The notes beneath the pieces are model-generated. The model saw only the letters and a program-made list of their open reading frames with translations, made no database searches and was not told the DNA's origin. From assembly GCA_013239625.1 (NCBI GenBank), contig MU053365.1:1646115-1710114 (forward strand): a stretch of DNA of 64,000 bases. The letters run 5' to 3'. Shown here one piece after another: positions 17,083 to 45,871 of the stretch (the first letter of the stretch is position 1; every line of letters begins with the position of its first letter). Both the position numbers and the translations under genes were made by a program. The DNA is from Lama guanicoe. Its lineage: Eukaryota.

Positions 17083-17214
17083 TAGGTTGCCAGCTTCAGC
17101 CATTCTGTGTGTAGTACCCCATTCCAGGAAGTGTCATTCATGTGGCTAAAACAATGATTGGCATGTCCTGGAATGAGGTAATGCACAACAGGTACAACAT
17201 TGGTGGTGGTCCTA
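17083..17214 (+). ncRNA. miR-506-family hairpin, miR-507 paralogue (5p arm 17120-17140, 3p arm 17155-17176)
   Basis: CATTCCAGGAAGTGTCATTCA pairs with TGATTGGCATGTCCTGGAATG (first 10 bp perfect, 2 mismatches overall). Apical TGTG is present. The ~0.8-kb flank is paralogous to the 40.9-kb miR-507 copy. Confidence 0.8.
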
Positions 17215-19942: not shown

Positions 19943-20071
19943 CAGAGAAGCCACCTTGAGCCATGCTGTATGCAGTGCCCTATTTAGGAAGACGCCATTC
20001 ACATCCACTATGTTATGAAGTGAGCCTTTCTGAGGAGGGTAATGCTCAAAAGTACAACTTTGTTGGTCACT
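19943..20071 (+). pseudogene. Degenerate miR-506-family hairpin
   Basis: gccaccttgagccatgctgtatgcagtgccctatttaggaag..tgaagtgagcctttctgaggagggtaatgc is clearly homologous, but the arms have about 5 mismatches and several G:U pairs, and the 3' flank is truncated. Confidence 0.65.
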
Positions 20072-21144: not shown

Positions 21145-21323
21145 TTGTTTTGTTTTGTTTTGTTTTTTATCATTTGGAATTTCTTTTTATATTTTAGTTT
21201 CCTTTTGAGGGGGTAGGTAATTAGATTGATTGATTGATTTTTTTAAGAGGAGGCAGTGGGGATTGAACCCAGGACCTCTTGCATGCTAAGCATGCACTCT
21301 ACCACTTGAGCTATACCCTCCCC
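21145..21323 (-). mobile_element. tRNA-derived SINE (camelid vic-1-like)
   Basis: The minus strand reads ggggagggtatagctcaagtggtagagtgcatgcttagcatgcaagaggtcctgggttcaatcccc, with Pol III A and B boxes, followed by an A-rich tail. Confidence 0.8.
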
Positions 21324-23934
21324 ACCAAGGCTATTTTATGTGATGGTTTTGCCTGTACTGATTATCCTCGAACGTGAGAAATCCAGATCAGTGACTGAGA
21401 CATCAATTTCTTGGCTTAAAAGAGGTGCAGCTGCCTATTAAACTGGTAGTGCATGTGCACAGGTATGTCTGGGAGTATTAAACTAACTTGCTACACTACT
21501 GACCTAAAACTAGTACATGGCTATGATGGCTAATGCTTGTGCTTCTGCGTTCCTGCTAGATTAAGTTGAGAATGATCTAGCACAAGAAACATGGTGGTAA
21601 AAGAGAAGGTTGAATTGGACAATATATTGCAGTCAAACTCTCTGATAATGGAGCTCATCACATCTGCAGTGTCAATAGGAGAGTGAACCCCCTCTATTAT
21701 AATTTACTTTATTTCCCATGGGAAATAGGGGGGGAAAGTGATATTTCCTCATCTTGGGATAATCTGCACAGAGTAAAAAGAGGCATAAGGTGATCAGTGG
21801 ATCTTAAGACATTCAGTTAGAAGGAGGAGTATTGAGGCTAATAATGTTGAGAAGAGTTAAAGTCTTTTTGGAAATACTGGTACCAATTTTTGATATGCAG
21901 TTTGATGAGATGTACATCCTGGTATACCTGTCACTGTAACTTCCTTTGTTTCTCAAATAACGGTTTATGTATTTCTTTGAAAATATGTTGACTTTAAATT
22001 CTTTATCTGCTAGTATGCTATTTGGAAACTGTCACATGAAGTTTCTTTTGTCTGCTTTTCTCCTGTGTATGGGATGCATTTTTCTTTCCTTTGGCATGTC
22101 TCATGATTTCAGTGAAAGCTGGACATCTTATATGACTAATTGTAGCAACCCTGGATGATGATTTCCCCTCCGTGGGATTATTTTGTTGTTGTTGTTTTCT
22201 GCCAGTTTGTTTATTGTCTTGGCAATTCTATATCAGTGAAGTTTTGTCTGTGGCATGAAACTGTTTTGTGCTTTTCCTATTGGGGCACAGGCTTTGTTAT
22301 GCACACAGTCATTCTGAGAAGACAGTGGTTTTGGTGGAGTTCTCTTCGACTCCTTTTCTTAATGATCTCTCTGTCAGTCTATCTGCCTCCATGTGTACCG
22401 CACCCAGCCCTTAGACTTCCTAACTGCAAGCAGATTATTACGTAGTTTTCAAAATGCTATAGGCAAAAAGTGCTCCAGAGTTTGATCTAAATAATTCCGT
22501 CTCTTTTGCACAGGTAGTTTTGAGGCAAGTCTTTGAGGTTTGTTTAGATAGCACGAGGGCTCTTAGTAGTTCTCTCTCCGCCTGGTTCTCTCTGGCGAGC
22601 AAGCTGGACTGTTTCTCAGCTTATTCCTCGCAGAGTGCTACAACCTCGTTTTATTGACTGATCATCAAAATCTGTCTTGTTTGTGGTGGGTTTAACATAG
22701 CCTACACTCTGTTACAAATAAAGTCTTATTTTTTAGAGAGAGCATTCATATTCTCTGTTATTCAGGGTAGCCTCTCACACTGGGCAAAAATAGTAGAATC
22801 ACTAATCTGGAGCTGTCACTAAAGGCAGGACTGCTTCTCTCAGGGTGACATTTGTGCTATGCAAGCCGGGCGCTTGTCAGTGTCAGTAGATCTTGTTCTT
22901 CTCCACTTGCCTCACCTGATGTGGAGCCAAAGCACAACAATCAGTCTACTGCAAAGTATATTAGAGATCCAGTACTCTTAGACACTGTGCCTGCAGTAGA
23001 ACCTCCAGTCTATGATAGTAAGCGGAGTGGTGGGACAGCGCCCCGAAGTTCTCACCACGTGTGTTTAGAGAAATGCTGGAGGATTGCAACTTCCATGAGT
23101 ACACTGTAGCTCTTGATAGGGAGCTAGAGATAGAGACAATCTAATTTTTACGCCATAGTCACCTTAAAGACTAAAACCCCAGCCTCTGGTCTCCATTTAC
23201 CATATCTGTGTACCTATATTGTGGTGTCTTGGACTCTGATTTTCCAGGGAAATGCAGGCACCATATAGTATATCTCAGAATGAAAATAATGCAATTACAT
23301 GTTTTAAACAATGTCGTTTCAGATAATGACCCAGAAATCCCAAGAGCTAAAGGAACGTAAGGGTGTCCTCCGGTGTCAGGTACATTTTACATCTTGCAGA
23401 TCACTCCTGTTAAGTGCATGGGCTTTGTACACTCTGGGGTCTGAGGAAGAAAAACGATTTCTACTTTTCTCCATCCTACCACCTACTGTTTATTGTCTTT
23501 TTCTTTACATCTAAGATTGTGTGTACTTTCCCTGATTATTCTGTTTCTCTGGAGTTGAGGTAGGTAACTCAGGTACAGGGACTCATACCATGTAAGTCAA
23601 GCATGGATTGGTGGCATGAAGTAAATTTACTGCTTAATTAATGGGTCTGGGGAATACAAACTGCTTGTTAATGCTTTATATACAACAGTGGGAAAAGGAA
23701 TAGGATAAGGCATGCAAGGATATTTCTTCCATAAGCAGCAGAACCTAACAATAAGAATTAATATTTATCAGTTCTGAAAAACTGCCATATGGAATGTCTA
23801 CTATGTAAGTGGCCAGCACCCAGGAGGGGGTATGAGGAAGGACAGTGGAGCTGGTACAGGTCCTATGTACAAATTCCACTGATCACTGAAAATACTAAGG
23901 GACTGCTTCGAAGGCACATTAGTTGTTGTTTAGG

Positions 23935-24067
23935 CAGGGCTGCCATCCGTGGACATGCTGTGTGTGGTACTCGACTGCAGGGAGTGACAATCATATATAA
24001 TTAAAAATGACTGACATCTCTGCTAGGGGAGAAATACCTGACACGTGTGGCTTATGTGATGACACTG
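23935..24067 (+). ncRNA. MIR509: miR-509-like hairpin (5p 23973-23993, 3p 24008-24029)
   Basis: catgctgtgtgtggtactcgactgcagggagtgacaatcatatataattaaaaatgactgacatctctgc closely follows recalled hsa-mir-509, including the TATAATTAAAAATGA loop region. The arms pair, but the lower stem is weaker. Confidence 0.7.
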
Positions 24068-24523: not shown

Positions 24524-25301
24524 GTCTAAAACATGCTTGGTTTTAAAAAAGAATGTTTCAATCCTATGTAAGTCACCAACTTATTAGGGTTTGTGAATCA
24601 TACTGAGAAACTTGTACTCTGTGATATTATTTTTTGTTGTCAGTCTTTAAAAAATTCATGTATCTTTAATCTTTCTGTCACTTTTCTTTTGGTGTCCCTT
24701 CCTAGTGCAGTGAGGAGAGAGAAAAAGCGAAGGCAGAAAAGGGAGAGAGAAGGAGATAATTCTTGGTAAGTGGTCTTTTTTTCACTCCTGGATCTGAGGA
24801 GGAAAAGGGATTTCTACTCTCTCCGTCATACCTACCATGATTATTCTCCCATTCTCCGCTTCTAAGATCCTGTGTATTTTCCCTGCTTATTCTGTGGTTC
24901 AATAGTTGAGATATGTATTCAGGTGGAAAGATTCAGATCTTTGGGTGATAAGCATGGGTTGGTGATACACAGTGTATTTTTTGATAAATGATTGAATTTG
25001 GATAATACAAACTACTTGTTAATGCTTTATATATAACATTGAGAAAACAAACCAGCTAAGGCATCCAAAGTTATTTCTTCCATGAGTAAGAGAAGAACCT
25101 AACTGGAGGGCTTAATGGTTCTTAGTTCTAAAAAGTGTCTTGAGAAAACTCTGAACTATGAGTAGTTAACACTTAGAGAAGGATGGATGGGGAAAGACAG
25201 TTGAGCGAGTGCTATAGTGGTCCTTAGTACAAATGCCAGTGGCCACTCACAGCCTAAAAATACTGAGGGGTTTGCAAAAGGAGCATGAAAGGGTGATTAG
25301 G

Positions 25302-27466: not shown

Positions 27467-28505
27467 GGGTGTATTTATTGTTCAATTGCTATATAGAAAA
27501 TTAATCCACATTAACAACTTAAAAATGCACACTTACTATCCCGTAGTTTCTGTGGGTCAGAAGTGTGTATGTAACTGGGTTCTCAGCTCAAGGTCTCTCT
27601 CACAAGACTGAAATAAAGGTCTCAACTGGAGTTGTGAAATCATCTGAGCTCAAGGTCCTCTTCCTAAACTGGCAAAATTTACTTTCTTTTACCCATAGAA
27701 CTAAGGCTCTCATTTTCTGGAGATCCCCTGCTGTTCCTTGCCATGTGGTGCTGTCTACAACATGGCAGTTTGCTTCTCAAGGCTGCTCTCTCTTGTCTCT
27801 TGTCTCTGTATCATCATTCATCATCTTCTTTTTCTTCTCGTCCTCCTTGTATTTCTTCCTCTTCCTCATCCTCTCCTTCCCCCTGTTCTTCCTCCTCCTT
27901 CTCCTCTTCTCTTCTTTCTCCTCCTCCTTCACCTCCTTCTACCTCCTCTTCTCCTTCTTCTTCTCCCTCTTCTCATTCTCCCTCTTATTCAAGCCAACAC
28001 CTCAATTGTTTCCAACAAGGCTGGGAAAAACATTCAGACAACTCATTAGATCCTTTCATCTAAAAGGAAGTGGAAAGGGGAGGATTAGACACAAATATTT
28101 ACTCTGGTGAAAATCCAGACATGTATTTTCAAGCTAAAGACATTGATAACATATTGGCAAGTTCTTGTCCCCACTTACGTGAACCATACCAGCTACCCAG
28201 AATATCCTAGTGGTAATGAATATGTTCAGAGAGAGATGATAGTGAGAAGATACTATATCCTATTTTAAAGAGCTTACTTAATTAGATCAGGTTCCCTCAG
28301 GATAATCTACCTTTAGAGTACATCACTTCAAAAGATTAATAACCTTAATTACATCTGTAACATCCATTTTGCTATAAAACATAACATAATCAAGTGAATG
28401 ATAACCCATAAAATTAAAAAGCCCTGCTCACACAGAAAGGGAGAAACTTATGCAGGGCATGTCCATGGGGATTCATCTTGTGGAGACCAAGAATTCTGCC
28501 TTCCA
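27467..28505 (-). mobile_element. MLT1-type MaLR LTR pieces split by a pyrimidine low-complexity tract
   Basis: acttactatcccgtagtttctgtgggtcag..caagactgaaataaaggtc and aaccttaattacatctgtaacatccattttgc motifs. Confidence 0.6.
27810..27988. repeat. (CTT/CCT)n degenerate trinucleotide tract
   Basis: Seen directly; it explains the Ser/Leu/Phe-rich spurious ORFs here. Confidence 0.9.
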
Positions 28506-28874
28506 CTAAGGGACGTGGAAATTTGAGGTTGAAGTTTAGGATGTAAAAGGATGTGGCGGGTGTACTGAGGTGAACTTCAACTTTGGAGGAAAACAAATCA
28601 TATATAAACCATAATTTGTAATGACTTTAAATTCAATATTCATCATTCATTCATAGATGAGGCTATATCTTATCCAAGTGAGAGAAGAAAGGATCATTCT
28701 CTCTCAGCCTGAAAACCTGCAAATCAAGCGTGCAGCAGGTGAGGGGATACTAATGCAGGGAGAGATGCAAGAAGGAGGGCATTGGAGTGGGTGTTTCTTA
28801 TACCTTTTTTATAAATCCTGGGGGCCACACATGGCAGCATCAGGTGACTATGAAAGTAGCATGGCTGGGAAGAT

Positions 28875-29011
28875 CTGGGCAGTCACCGCATTTAACCATA
28901 CTTTGTGAAGTGCCCCACTCCAAAGAGTGCCATTCAAGTATACTAAAATATGATTGGCACTTTTTTGAGTGTCGTAATTCACAACATGTACAACCACATG
29001 TGGTGGCCCTG
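28875..29011 (+). ncRNA. miR-506-family hairpin, unassigned (5p 28916-28936, 3p 28951-28972)
   Basis: CACTCCAAAGAGTGCCATTCA pairs with TGATTGGCACTTTTTTGAGTG (2 mismatches, 1 G:U). The lower stem is ttgtgaa/ttcacaa, and the element ends with tggtggccctg. Confidence 0.8.
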
Positions 29012-29699
29012 TGGGAAGATGGTGTGGTTGTCTGTGCACAGCTGCACTCACTTTGGCCAAATCACTAATCTCTCAAAAGACTCAAGTGCTGCTGAAAAGA
29101 CTAGACCTAGGATCTGACGGCACTTGGAAAATCTTCCCATCCAGGTTCTTCAAACATTTACATATGTTTGTCCAAAAAGGACCTGAGACATTGGAACAAG
29201 ATCTGGGTTTGGCCCATCATTCTCTTTCATCCTTTTCTCTCTTCTGTACTAATGCCACTTCTCTTCTAAAGAACCTAGAAGCTCCTTCTTCTTTAATATC
29301 CTCTATATCACTATATCAGCAGCAGTTCAGATGGGACCAGAACTTTTCATTCAGTTAGTCTCTTTGCACATTTTATTTTAATTTTTTGTTTAGTTAATGT
29401 GAAATATAAAGATTTGTTGAAGTGGTGAGAGCTTTCACTTTTCATGCCTTTAGAACTAAAGACATATTGCATAGACTTTTCTCTCTGTTCTTAATGGATC
29501 CTATCTTAATCCAGCTTCTTCAAAGAGAGACTAACAGAGAAAAACAGAGAAAGGTAAAAGATGGCAAACATCACAGCCCTTGGGACCATTTCAGTACTGC
29601 AGCAATTCTTGGGAAACACTTTGTATATTGTACATTTTATGATAGAGAGTTAGTATACCCTGATTCCCCCAGCCTTTGAATCGTTGGCAACTGATGTTT

Positions 29700-32703: not shown

Positions 32704-32831
32704 CAGGGCCACCAACTTCAGCTGAGTGTAGTGCCCTACTCCAGAGAGTGTCATTCACATACACTACAACATGATTGTCACTTTTTGGAGTAGAGTAATG
32801 CACATCATATGTGAAATATGTGGTGGCTCTG
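32704..32831 (+). ncRNA. MIR508: miR-508 orthologue (5p 32737-32757, 3p 32772-32794)
   Basis: cttcagctgagtgtagtgccctactccagag..catgattgtcactttttggagtagagtaatgcacatca is near-identical to recalled hsa-mir-508. The arms pair with 2 U:U mismatches. The termini cagggccacca / tggtggctctg are inverted repeats (10 of 11 match). Confidence 0.9.
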
Positions 32832-34069
32832 GAGGTGAGTATATGTGTATAGCTGCATATGCATAGCTGCCCTCCCTTGAGTCCAAGAAGCATCTCCCTT
32901 TGCTAGGCTACTTCAATTGACTCTCATAAGCAGGTTTAAGTAAGGCTTAGGGACTGAGGGCTCCTTGGAAAAGTCACCCATGGAGTTTTTCCAAGGATTT
33001 GTATATCCTTGTCCAAAGGAGATGTGCCTACATGGGTGTAAAATTTGTAGTGAGGACGTGGCTTTCCCTCTGTGCGTTCAGAGCTTCTACTGTTTGCAGA
33101 ACCCAAGTACTTTTTACGCCCCTCCAAACCTCTAATCTGTTCTTTCCTAGCTGCATTCTTTATAGTTCCCAAGCTTTTCCCTTTTACTTTGGGGCTTTTC
33201 AAATTCCTTCCTGCTTTCCTTCCATATCCCAAAGCTCTTTACTCTCAAGATTGAAGATAAGTTGTTCCTCAGGGATTTGGATGCACTTCATTACTTGGAA
33301 AACTTTCTTCTAAAGCATATGTACGTCAATATGTTCATATATTTAAGTATTTATTTTAAATTCATGTTTTTGTATAGCTATATCAATTCTTTTGGAATTC
33401 ACCATAACCATAGGGGTTAAGAAGATGCCTAGAACATTTAATTTGGTAGTTCCTTTTACTCTATTTAACATTTTGATTTTTGAATTCTGTGAAAGGATGA
33501 AGAGAAGGAAAGGTACTCATCTCAGACCTCCTGAGAATGAGAATGACACTTTGTCTTTTCCCTTTCATATTCCTTGAGGTGTTCCTTCTTAGCCAGAGTC
33601 TTTGCAAAGAAAGAAAAATCAAGAATCAGAGAAGATAGATGACATCAGACCCCCGGAGACCTTCTTCAGGACTGGAGCAGTGACTGAGAAGCAGGTTGAA
33701 TACACTATTGTTCTGGGAAATGGGAGTGGGGAACTGTCATCCTGATGCCCCCTCCCAGATGAGCTCATATAACCCACATCACATTAGTGCATTGAACGGA
33801 CAAGTAGAAATTTCTAGAATTTTGCCGTCATTTCAAATCAGTTACATGTATTACCCCACTACAAATCTTGGGGGAAATTTATAGTGTGACCAAGAGGAAA
33901 GGAATTCCTCCATTTTATGTCCCAGTATTACTACATTACTACCTATGTACAATCAATGCCTACTGCTTAAAAGGTGTGTTACCCTCTCATGAGCTCTATA
34001 GATTTCCCTGAGCAGAAACTCTTACATCCCCAGATTTGTCCCAGTCAGTGACAGTGATGCTATTGTAGA

Positions 34070-38097: not shown

Positions 38098-38230
38098 CAG
38101 GGCTGCCACATTCAGCCACATTGTGTGCAGTGCCCTACTCAAAATGGTATGATTCACACAAACTAAACAATGAAGTTTGCTTTTGAAGTAGAGTAATGTA
38201 CAACATGTACATCTACATGTAGTAGTCCTG
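38098..38230 (+). pseudogene. Degenerate miR-506-family hairpin
   Basis: cagggctgccacattcagcc..gtgcagtgccctactcaaaatgg..tgaagtttgcttttgaagtagagtaatgtacaacatg; the upper half of the stem pairs poorly. Confidence 0.7.
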
Positions 38231-40400: not shown

Positions 40401-40933
40401 CATGTGTAATGTTGCTGCTGTTTCTGCTGCTGCAGCCCTCCATGTATGATCAGAGGATGCCAAGCTGAAGCCCACGTGGTGATACAAGGAAGACTCATGG
40501 TGTGAAGAAGAAGATAATTCTCTCAAGCAGTTCCATCCAAGCTCTATCTGGTCTGCAATATCTAAATGCGATGAGTGAGTTGTGTGATTCTTTCTACTAA
40601 ACAACTGACTTTGGGGAGGTACAACGTCATTTTGCATGTGGCAGCTAGGTCAAAATGAAAATAAGCTGAATAATGGAGGCACATATTCTGTGTCCATGAG
40701 GAAGAGGGAAAAGGAAAGGAGGAAGGCTTATTCTCTCTCAGTCCTAAAATCTGTCTCATTAAATGCACAGCAGGGGAGGGGATAAGCAGTCAGGGAAAGG
40801 AAGAAGAGAGAGGAGAGTATGTTGGTTATTTTCTAGATCTTTTGGGTATATTCTGCTGATTACTCATTGGCTGAGTGTTGGGGTATTGATTAAACTGCCA
40901 TAGTGAGGGAAGGTGCTTTTTTTGTGGTTTAGG

Positions 40934-41066
40934 TAGGGTCACCACCTTTAGCTATGCTGTGTGCAGTGCTCCACTTCAGGAAGTGCCATCCATGTGGCTA
41001 GAGATATGATTGGCATCTCCTAGAGTGAAGTAATGCACAACACGTACGATGTCAGTGCTGGCCTTG
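40934..41066 (+). ncRNA. MIR507: miR-507 orthologue (5p 40972-40992, 3p 41007-41028)
   Basis: tgctgtgtgcagtgctccacttcaggaagtgccatccatgtggctagagatatg..gagtgaagtaatgcacaaca follows recalled hsa-mir-507 and lies ~310 bp upstream of the miR-506 copy, a close pairing as in human. Confidence 0.85.
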
Positions 41067-41245: not shown

Positions 41246-41375
41246 CAGGGCTGCCACCTTCAGCTACTGTGTTCAGTGCCCTACTCAGGAAGGTGTTGTT
41301 TACATAGATTGATATGTGAATGGCACCTTATGAGTAGAGCAATGTATAATGTGGACAACATTTGTGGTGGCATTA
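41246..41375 (+). ncRNA. MIR506: miR-506 orthologue (5p 41282-41302, 3p 41317-41338)
   Basis: tactcaggaaggtgtt..atagattgatatgtgaatggcaccttatgagtagag..tggacaacatttgtggtggc; the 3' tail matches recalled hsa-mir-506 and the arms pair. Confidence 0.85.
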
Positions 41376-41884
41376 GTAGTGGTGGGTGGATATTTAGTTC
41401 CAGAGCTGCACTCCCTCGAGTCTGGGTACCCACCTTTAAGTGATGGGTCGCCTCCTAATACTCTCTGAAACACCTCTTAAAACACCTGATCCAGAATTTG
41501 AGGGCCCCTGGGAAAAGTCTCCCATGTGGGATCTTCAGGTATTTATAGCTCTTTGTCCACAAAAGGACTGACCACAGTTAGAACAGTATTTGGGGTATGA
41601 ACATGAACCTTTATCTCTTGTATTTCTTAGCCTTTCCTCCCTGTGCAACCCAAATACACTTACTACTTTCAAAACTCCTGAAGAGTTTACACCTAATTGC
41701 TTTCCTCATAATAATCAAGCTTTCTTTTTTGGCAGCCAGAACACCCTCCTGCCCTTCCCTGCTGAACCCCAAACTCCTTTAACCCTCTTATGGAGTGTTG
41801 CTAGCTCTCTCTTCAAGGTTTAGATGCTCCACAATTCCTTTGAATATTCCTGTATACCCTTGATGATTTTATCACATTAGTAAT

Positions 41885-44080: not shown

Positions 44081-45871
44081 CATGGTGTAATGGGTCTTAG
44101 AATCTCCTACTATGTGCTAGGTTGCTACAAAGACTTCTCTGAAGCTACTACTGATGGGTGGGTGAAATAGAGGAGAAGAAATTGTACTCATGCTAATGAT
44201 TGAAGGAAAGTTTAGAGTTGTTATTCTTTCCGCTTAAGAAGTTTAAGGAGGCATGTCAAGAGCTCAAATACTTCAAGGAAGATAGAATTGGACAAAAGAG
44301 AAATTGATCTATGTAAATGTTTCTGTGTAATCTGACTTTGGTTACTTTTCATGAATTTTAATAAATTTAAAGAAAGGATCAAGATACTTAGAATCATTTT
44401 ATTCTCTGAAATATGTTTCATTGACCATGACCAAGCCCTGGGACTGAGCTGTATACTGCCCTGTCTTTTGGGAGTTATAGATATTTAGTAGACTGATGGG
44501 AATGATGCACAGGAACACCTGAGACAACGAATCTCCATTATTTTCCCATACCAATTTAAAATAAGTACATGGCTACTGTGAAAGATGCTTCTAATCATTC
44601 AGTCTTATTAAACTAAATGCAGAATAATCCAGCCCAGTACCATGTGTTGGAAAGGAAGGAATTCTATCCAGTTCCCCATCAACACAGTTTCATTATATCT
44701 ATAGTATCCAAATTAGATGGGGCATCTCTCTACTGTATTCTATTATTTCTATTAGAATTGCTTTGGAAAATTAGAAAGAAAGTAATATATCTTGAGTTGG
44801 GGCTAGGAAGAAACAAAACAGAGTCTAGGTGGCCTGTTTCAGTTGGAAATTTCCCTTGAGAGCATGAATTTATGGTCATAGGCTATCATAAGTCTTTCTG
44901 TATTACACACAAATATTAGGGAATGTGTGATGTTTCTTACATTTAAAGAAGATAACTAGTTTTATGGACATTTGAAAAAACAAGGGAACAGATGCAGACA
45001 GGAAGACAAGGAGGCATCCAGATTACATTTTCCTCACTCTTATATTACCGTATATTTCAAAAGTAAGAAATGTAGCTGATATATATTTACACAAATGCTC
45101 TTATATCTCTTTTCACAAGAACTTCCAGAACCCATTTTTCATATTTTTAAATCAACCCTGTGTTTGTTCTGGTATTATCCCTTATATTTCCCTCTAACTT
45201 GTTCCAGGCTCAGTTTGTCAAGGAAATGCAGGCACCTAGTAGCATATCACAGAATGTAAAAATGTGGAAATGTGCTAATAACAACCATGCATCCAAAGAA
45301 AAGTTCAGAAAACTCAGGAGCTAAGAGGATGAGGCACCAAGAATATTCTCTGTCTTGTTGACAACTCCTGATAAGTAACTCTTTTATTCATTCCAGAGTC
45401 TAAGAAGGGAAAGAGTCCTCTACTCTCTCCATCCCACCAGCTACTGATTATTCTTCCATTCTTTGCTTCTAAGATCCTGCGTTTTACCTGCTTATTTTGT
45501 GTCTCAGGAGGTGAGGTAAGCAACTTAGGTAGAGGGACTCAGATCTTTAGGTGACAAGGGAAGAGTTAGTGTGATGGAATATATTTTCTGCCTAAATATT
45601 GAATCTGGGAAATGCAAATTACTTGTTAATAAACATATATAACAGTGGGAAAAGAATCAAGATAAGACTTGTGAAGATATTTCTTCTATGAGCAGGAGCA
45701 CTTAAGAGGAGGTATTAATGGTTCTCAGTTCCTATAACTGTCATGTGAAAACCTCAACATGTGAGAGGATAGCACTCAGGGATGGATGGAAGAGAAAAGT
45801 CAGCAGTGTGGGTGCTATAGAGTTCCTTTGGACAAATGCTGGTGGCCACTCACAGCCTGAAAACATGAGGA

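Follow-up and report, generated by a model that had tools for sequence, protein, structure and literature searches.

A probable ortholog of dog and cat mir-507b in the miR-506-family cluster of the guanaco genome

The segment 28903-28984 on the plus strand of the guanaco DNA analysed here is, with high probability, the pre-miRNA of the guanaco ortholog of mir-507b, a paralogue in the X-linked, FMR1-proximal MIR-506 family. It lies in a stretch of 64,000 nucleotides of Lama guanicoe contig MU053365.1 (referred to as the window, with positions counted from its first letter). The original prediction had described the hairpin as unassigned and as the best novel miRNA candidate of the region. Neither description held, since 28903-28984 matches the Rfam family mir-507 (RF04282, clan CL00136) over its full model (positions 1-82 of 82) with a score of 91.3 bits, above the cut-off of 79 (E 1.4e-19), and cfa-mir-507b of dog and fca-mir-507b of cat are already catalogued with a near-identical mature sequence. 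The prediction had itself stated that an identical annotated miRNA would remove the novelty, and this is essentially what the dog and cat annotations do. Its alternative wording, a lineage-retained member of the family, was correct. The hairpin is thus a correct structural observation of a miRNA gene that is known in other species. The features are collected in Table 1.

Table 1. Features of the candidate locus and of the miR-506-family cluster in the window
Feature	Position	Strand	Basis or Rfam score
Extended palindrome, pri-miRNA stem, MER91C-like element	28875..29011	+	Fold; outer stem recurs in paralogues
Pre-miRNA hairpin with lower stem	28903..28984	+	Rfam mir-507 (RF04282) match
Inferred 5p arm, probable passenger	28916..28936	+	2-nt overhang relative to 3p; cat precursor start
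Inferred mature 3p guide, seed UUGGCAC	28953..28973	+	Dog primer, cat mature 3p, MirGeneDB seed
Lower-stem pair, 5' side: A here; C in dog and in 5/10 paralogues	28908	+	
Lower-stem pair, 3' side: T here and in dog; G in 8/10 paralogues	28979	+	
CNNC motif CAAC	28991..28994	+	+18 from inferred Drosha cut after 28973
mir-507	start 17107	+	78.1 bits
mir-8908-like	start about 19966	+	57.7 bits
mir-509	start 23960	+	68.8 bits
mir-509	start 25327	+	86.8 bits
mir-507, the candidate	start 28903	+	91.3 bits
mir-507 by Rfam, mir-508-like by position; nearest in-window paralogue	32724..32805	+	91.5 bits
mir-507	start 38123	+	54.9 bits
mir-507(a) copy, 310 nt upstream of the mir-506 hairpin	40959..41040	+	83.9 bits
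mir-506	41269..41349	+	80.5 bits
mir-513	start 60263	+	99 bits

The region 28875-29011 folds as one long hairpin at -54.1 kcal/mol, and none of 200 dinucleotide shuffles was as stable (mean -29.75, sd 3.55, z -6.86). Sequence and fold bear out the predicted arm duplex of 21 positions with 19 pairs, two mismatches and one G:U. It joins 28916-36 to 28951-71 and runs as 5 bp, C.U (28921/28966), 11 bp, U.U (28933/28954) and 3 bp, with the G.U pair 28925/28962 inside the 11-bp run. Criteria of the MirGeneDB type ask of a bona fide miRNA that 16 or more positions pair between its arms; the candidate has 19 pairs over 21 arm positions. The lower stem consists of 7 bp between TTGTGAA (28903-09) and TTCACAA (28978-84), above which follow a G/A mismatch, 3 bp and a 2x2 internal loop (28914-15 / 28972-73). 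Further out, 28877-80 and 28884-91 pair with 28998-29009, and the internal loops are 28892-98 and 28991-97. Across the ten family copies in the window, the 8-pair helix of this outer stem is paired in 77.5% of cases and the outermost 4-pair helix in just 32.5%. The CAAC motif proposed as a CNNC element was also confirmed, 19 nt past the predicted 3p end at 28972 and at +18 counted from 28973, and falls within an unpaired 7-nt stretch. Six of the ten copies carry a CNNC at the homologous +17/+18 position, which argues that the motif was inherited by the family. The hairpin lacks both a basal UG at -14 and an apical UGU, in agreement with the MirGeneDB table of PMC11031087, where cfa-mir-507b is marked as having a CNNC and its UG and UGUG columns are blank.

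Membership of the miR-506~514 family, which had been proposed from the sequence, is supported by the RF04282 match and by a same-strand cluster of family members around the candidate. Ten miR-506-family hairpins, all on the plus strand, lie from 17107 to 60344, within 43 kb. An antisense reading of the candidate was rejected, the minus strand scoring 54.6 bits with RF04282 against 91.3 for the plus strand. The candidate is a single copy across the 2.05-Gb assembly. A search of the whole assembly with RF04282 gave 23 matches at E <= 0.01, comprising 14 on the candidate's contig (the ten loci and four minus-strand echoes) and nine dispersed over other contigs at 35.5-47.8 bits each; the latter are plausibly ordinary transposons of the MER91 type that lie away from the cluster.

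The cluster members differ in condition. Three appear to have decayed, their cores folding at -20.3 (38123-38203), -24.9 (19966-20052) and -21.9 kcal/mol (23960-24041), against -34.8 to -42.6 kcal/mol for the other seven. The copies at 38123 (54.9 bits) and 19966 (57.7 bits) score far under any family cut-off, the mir-509 hairpin at 23960 barely passes (68.8 against 64.5), and 17107-17188 falls narrowly below the mir-507 cut-off (78.1 against 79). The mir-506 hairpin at 41269-41349 folds at -36.9 kcal/mol and, at 80.5 bits under the Rfam mir-506 cut-off of 84.5, would be overlooked by annotation at gathering thresholds. The two mir-509 hairpins belong to a duplication unit of ~1.35 kb whose upstream part is present at 23421-23774 and 24755-25268, and a third copy of this part lies at 45360-45870 on the plus strand (73.7% over 520 nt). 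This third copy, which has the appearance of a truncated duplicate, is followed by no hairpin, and Rfam gave no match there at E <= 1. Inside the cluster, 21248-21320 on the minus strand matches the Rfam tRNA family at 36.5 bits (cut-off 29), and may represent a tRNA gene, a pseudogene or a repeat derived from a tRNA.

The candidate's contig also carries an FXR-family gene, 460 kb away and on the opposite strand. It was seen as two exons with an RGG box (contig positions 1184189-1186090, minus strand) that match Pfam FXMRP1_C_core at 84.5 and 67.9 bits, and the genome has two further loci of this kind. From the RGG-box exon we take this gene to be FMR1, which is probably correct and would anchor the synteny of the cluster. 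The Tudor_FRX1 profile matched solely at the two other FXR loci and not at the gene near the cluster, and a PDB search with the RGG-box exon gave no match. The MIR-506 family is described as sitting in the X-linked SLITRK2-FMR1 interval, beside FMR1 (PMC11031087), and the FXR-family gene on the candidate's contig fits this position.

The assignment to mir-507b draws on comparison with dog, for which we aligned the window by eye with the genomic insert of cfa-mir-507b and its 21-nt 3p primer (PMC11031087, supplementary file 8). The dog gene is Cfa-Mir-506-P2e in MirGeneDB (MIMAT0034416, chrX:115665393-115665450, minus strand, seed UUGGCAC; PMC11031087). Its 82-nt core is identical to the candidate at 75/82 positions (by eye), against at most 64/82 for any in-window paralogue, and its precursor spans 58 nt, as does 28916-28973 of the window. 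The dog flanks align with those of the candidate on both sides, with 60/67 identities over 28732-28798 (by eye), and a downstream flank block with CACTTTGGCCAAATCAC is common to the insert and the window. The differences comprise seven core substitutions and a 2-nt indel in the outer stem. Six of the 41 positions in the 5' half of the core differ and one of the 41 in the 3' half (28973, C here and G in dog); about five of the seven lie in or near the 5p arm, and the loop matches except for a difference at 28937 that we counted as loop. Those at 28918, 28925 and 28926 are merely exchanges between Watson-Crick and wobble pairs. Two positions that pair in dog, 28914/28973 and 28921/28966, have lost pairing in guanaco; the C at 28973, where dog and cat have G, places a C.C at the inferred Drosha cut, the sole departure from standard pairing in the Rfam consensus structure. 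Over 28953-28973 the dog 3p primer agrees with the window at 20/21 positions, 28973 being the only difference.

Gene order agrees as well. In the direction of transcription, cfa-mir-507b lies upstream of cfa-mir-508b and 508a, followed by 507a and 506 (PMC11031087), and the candidate likewise precedes the 508-type copy at 32724. The distance from the candidate to 507a is 12,056 nt in the window and 12,672 nt in dog, and that from 507a to mir-506 is 310 nt and 296 nt, respectively. The cat gene fca-mir-507b (chrX:119364814-119364873, minus strand; PMC5569061, supplementary file 2) shares with the candidate the 3p start AUUGGCAC and the 5p start CACUC (by eye), and its 3p is otherwise the same but has a single additional U in the U-run. 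Over the 59-nt cat precursor, cat and guanaco differ by eight substitutions (by eye), and over the 58-nt precursor there are six differences between the window and dog and four between dog and cat (by eye). In cat, fca-mir-507b is clustered with fca-mir-508, and fca-mir-507a with fca-mir-506 (PMC5569061).

Cattle bta-mir-507b was considered as a third ortholog and rejected, its miRBase mature sequence being different from the candidate. Cattle Bta-Mir-506-P2h (seed ACCCCAA) suits the hairpin at 17107 better, and the 3p arm of 17107-17188 matches the miRBase mature bta-miR-507-3p given in a cattle supplement at about 19/21 (by eye). The likeness of 17107 to bta-miR-507-3p and the mismatch of bta-miR-507b indicate that the names '507' and '507b' are used inconsistently with orthology across species. 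A degenerate pattern of the candidate's 3p arm, searched in metagenome contigs for host orthologs from other mammals, matched 0 contigs.

Two relatives within the window offer further points of comparison. The mir-507/507a copy at 40959-41040 (RF04282; human hsa-mir-507 is Hsa-Mir-506-P2) has the same Rfam family and hairpin architecture and a 3p arm that likewise begins with ATGATTGGCA, but the rest of its 3p differs, its core is 58/82 identical, and it adjoins mir-506 whereas the candidate lies 12 kb upstream. The mir-508-type copy at 32724 is nearer in its core (64/82), but its flanks differ and its 3p arm has TGATTGTCAC where the candidate has TGATTGGCAC.

The original prediction had also named a mature 3p, placed at 28951-28972, which would give the seed GAUUGGC. 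The arm stood, as the dog precursor contains this 22-nt sequence at 22/22, but its register is probably 2 nt off: the dog and cat annotations start at the homologue of 28953, which gives the seed UUGGCAC. A locus that is mir-507b and nevertheless releases its main product from 28951, with the GAUUGGC seed that it would share with the copies at 17107 and 40959, is unlikely but deserves to be weighed. That start is used by cat fca-miR-507a-3p and dog cfa-mir-507a, GATTGGC occurs in three of the ten 3p arms of the window (UUGGCAC in one), and the G-to-C change at 28973 could move the Drosha cut. Against it, 507b starts 2 nt later in both dog and cat. For the 28953-28973 register the lower stem comes to 11 nt (3' strand) or 13 nt (5' strand) and the CNNC lies at +18; a lower stem of about 11 with a CNNC at +18 fits canonical miRNA spacing.

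With the register of the dog and cat annotations, and on general rules of miRNA biogenesis, the candidate would be transcribed on the plus strand with its neighbouring hairpins in testis. Drosha/DGCR8 would cut on the 5' side of 28916 and the 3' side of 28973, some 11 bp above the basal junction, assisted by the CNNC at +18, and Dicer would take off the loop. The 3p strand 28953-28973, with a seed unique among the ten window copies, would then be loaded into Argonaute and, by a function carried over from the family, may repress spermatogenic mRNAs jointly and partly redundantly with other family members. In mice, simultaneous loss of 19 miR-506-family members lowers sperm competitiveness (PMC11031087).

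Orthologs of the candidate are expressed. In cat, fca-mir-507b is dominated by its 3p arm and has 74 reads, of which two testis libraries supplied 34 and 33, against 10,997 for fca-mir-507a (PMC5569061). In dog, testis small-RNA peaks are reported for miR-506-family members, and synthesized MER91C inserts, namely human MIR513A1, dog MIR507B and horse MIR514A, are reported as yielding miRNAs in HEK293T cells (PMC11031087). We also looked for sampled words of 27800-29330 in sequencing runs. Six runs of unrecorded kind contained 0.95-0.98 of them, and in four RNA-seq runs that come from a single study and bear the label 'reproductive system metagenome' the figure was 0.32-0.36 of 148 words, a share that may exclude the hairpin.

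The structure has been kept while the sequence changed. Between the candidate's 82-nt core and those of the other nine copies, identity is only 59.8-78.0%, highest for 32724. The original prediction was right in that pairing has been kept, here at 22-40% divergence from each in-window paralogue. Compared with the consensus of the other nine copies, the candidate differs at 15/82 positions, 11 of them paired and each leaving a standard pair; two pairs, 28908/28979 and 28916/28971, are altered on both sides. All 31 pairs are retained, which is true by construction because the structure used was the candidate's own fold; when 15 random substitutions were placed in the consensus, none of 3000 simulations retained 31 pairs (mean 20.95) and 0.33% reached the candidate's -34.8 kcal/mol. 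In the alignment of the ten paralogues, the hairpin proper has 31 pairs; 14 of these vary on both sides, and the paired share of cells is 85.1%. Taken over all 46 pairs of the structure, this share is 78.9%, against 29.7-49.9% in slid-partner controls, and 18 of the 46 pairs changed on both sides, a count matched by 2 of 500 shuffles. This pairing pattern is the expectation for a known structure-constrained miRNA family.

The original prediction had put particular weight on one of these pairs. The double change in the lower stem is real: 28908/28979 is A-U in the candidate, and the copy at 40959 has TGTGCA/TGCACA. Over the ten paralogues the pair is C-G in five, U-G in three, U-A in one and A-U in the candidate only. 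As evidence of function it is weaker than had been claimed, since the dog ortholog carries C opposite U there, a C.U mismatch. Given the dog mismatch and C-G as the commonest state in the family, the most parsimonious history would have two steps, a G-to-U change in the common 507b lineage followed by a C-to-A change in the guanaco lineage that brought the pairing back. If the dog insert yields the miRNA, the C.U mismatch would be tolerated and the pair would not be strictly needed for processing.

It is also conceivable, though we give it only a small chance, that the locus is a mir-507b ortholog that is no longer transcribed or processed in the guanaco lineage and persists by slow decay. The loss of the dog pairs 28914/28973 and 28921/28966 is compatible with such silence, as are the already minor abundance of the cat ortholog and the decay of other copies in the window (38123 and 19966, with cores of -20 to -25 kcal/mol). 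The distribution of changes speaks against it. The 3' half differs from dog at 1/41 positions, the 5' half at 6/41 and the flanks at roughly 10-25% (by eye), which is the pattern of a constrained guide strand. Moreover, the candidate folds like the strong copies, at -34.8 kcal/mol, and has retained its CNNC.

The origin of the family supplies a further alternative. The miR-506 family is reported to derive from the palindromic, non-autonomous DNA transposon MER91C (PMC11031087), and the candidate bears indirect signs of such an origin, namely its ~137-nt palindrome, an outer stem that reaches past the pre-miRNA and dispersed weak copies in the genome. The hairpin could accordingly be the palindrome of a plain MER91C relic with no role as a miRNA; the palindromy of the entire 137-nt element, the 8-bp outer-stem helix common to the paralogues and the nine weaker matches on other contigs would suit such a reading, which we nevertheless regard as very unlikely because the candidate sits within the FMR1-linked tandem cluster and on its strand, outscores the dispersed copies (91.3 bits; none of them above 47.8), and has a 3p arm conserved with expressed miRNAs of dog and cat. 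In the cluster, flanks of paralogues are 71-75% similar over 70-120 nt and out to ~220 nt on either side of the hairpins. Similarity beyond the ~137-nt palindrome indicates that the cluster grew by tandem duplication of larger units and not by transposition alone. Examples of such likeness are 28680-28749 with 40714-40784, and 29092-29207 with both 41476-41594 and 32948-33017.

That the locus is an uncatalogued and possibly lineage-specific miRNA of the cluster, as originally proposed, is scarcely credible: the statement that no human miRNA lies between 514b and 508 was right, as no human member of the family stands between hsa-mir-514b and hsa-mir-508 in the MirGeneDB table of PMC11031087, and a 19-nt DNA string of the 3p arm occurred in 0 papers in a search of main texts, but the Rfam assignment, the 3p arm shared with dog and cat mir-507b and the matching dog flanks and gene order all speak against it.

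The assignment to mir-507b bears on the age of the gene. The MirGeneDB table scores mir-507b as originating in C. familiaris (PMC11031087). The flanks have diverged from dog by ~10-25% (by eye), more than a close relative of dog would show. The presence of the gene in guanaco suggests that a dog-specific origin node is too young. Primate mir-514b lies upstream of mir-508, as the candidate lies upstream of the 508-type copy, and a macaque seed in the same table, UUGACAC, is one base off UUGGCAC (PMC11031087). We therefore raise, as a tentative reading that is quite possible but on balance doubtful, that mir-507b is an older locus whose 3p has been under purifying selection in dog, cat and guanaco, whose lower-stem pair passed from C-G through C.U to A-U, and of which primate mir-514b may be the positional counterpart. 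The C.U of dog beside the A-U of guanaco would in that case illustrate, on a small scale, how compensatory change can proceed step by step in the lower stem of a pri-miRNA. The value of the result lies mainly in annotation: mir-507b (Mir-506-P2 type) can serve as the name of the guanaco locus, which adds one more species to a rapidly evolving miRNA family that is linked to sperm competition.
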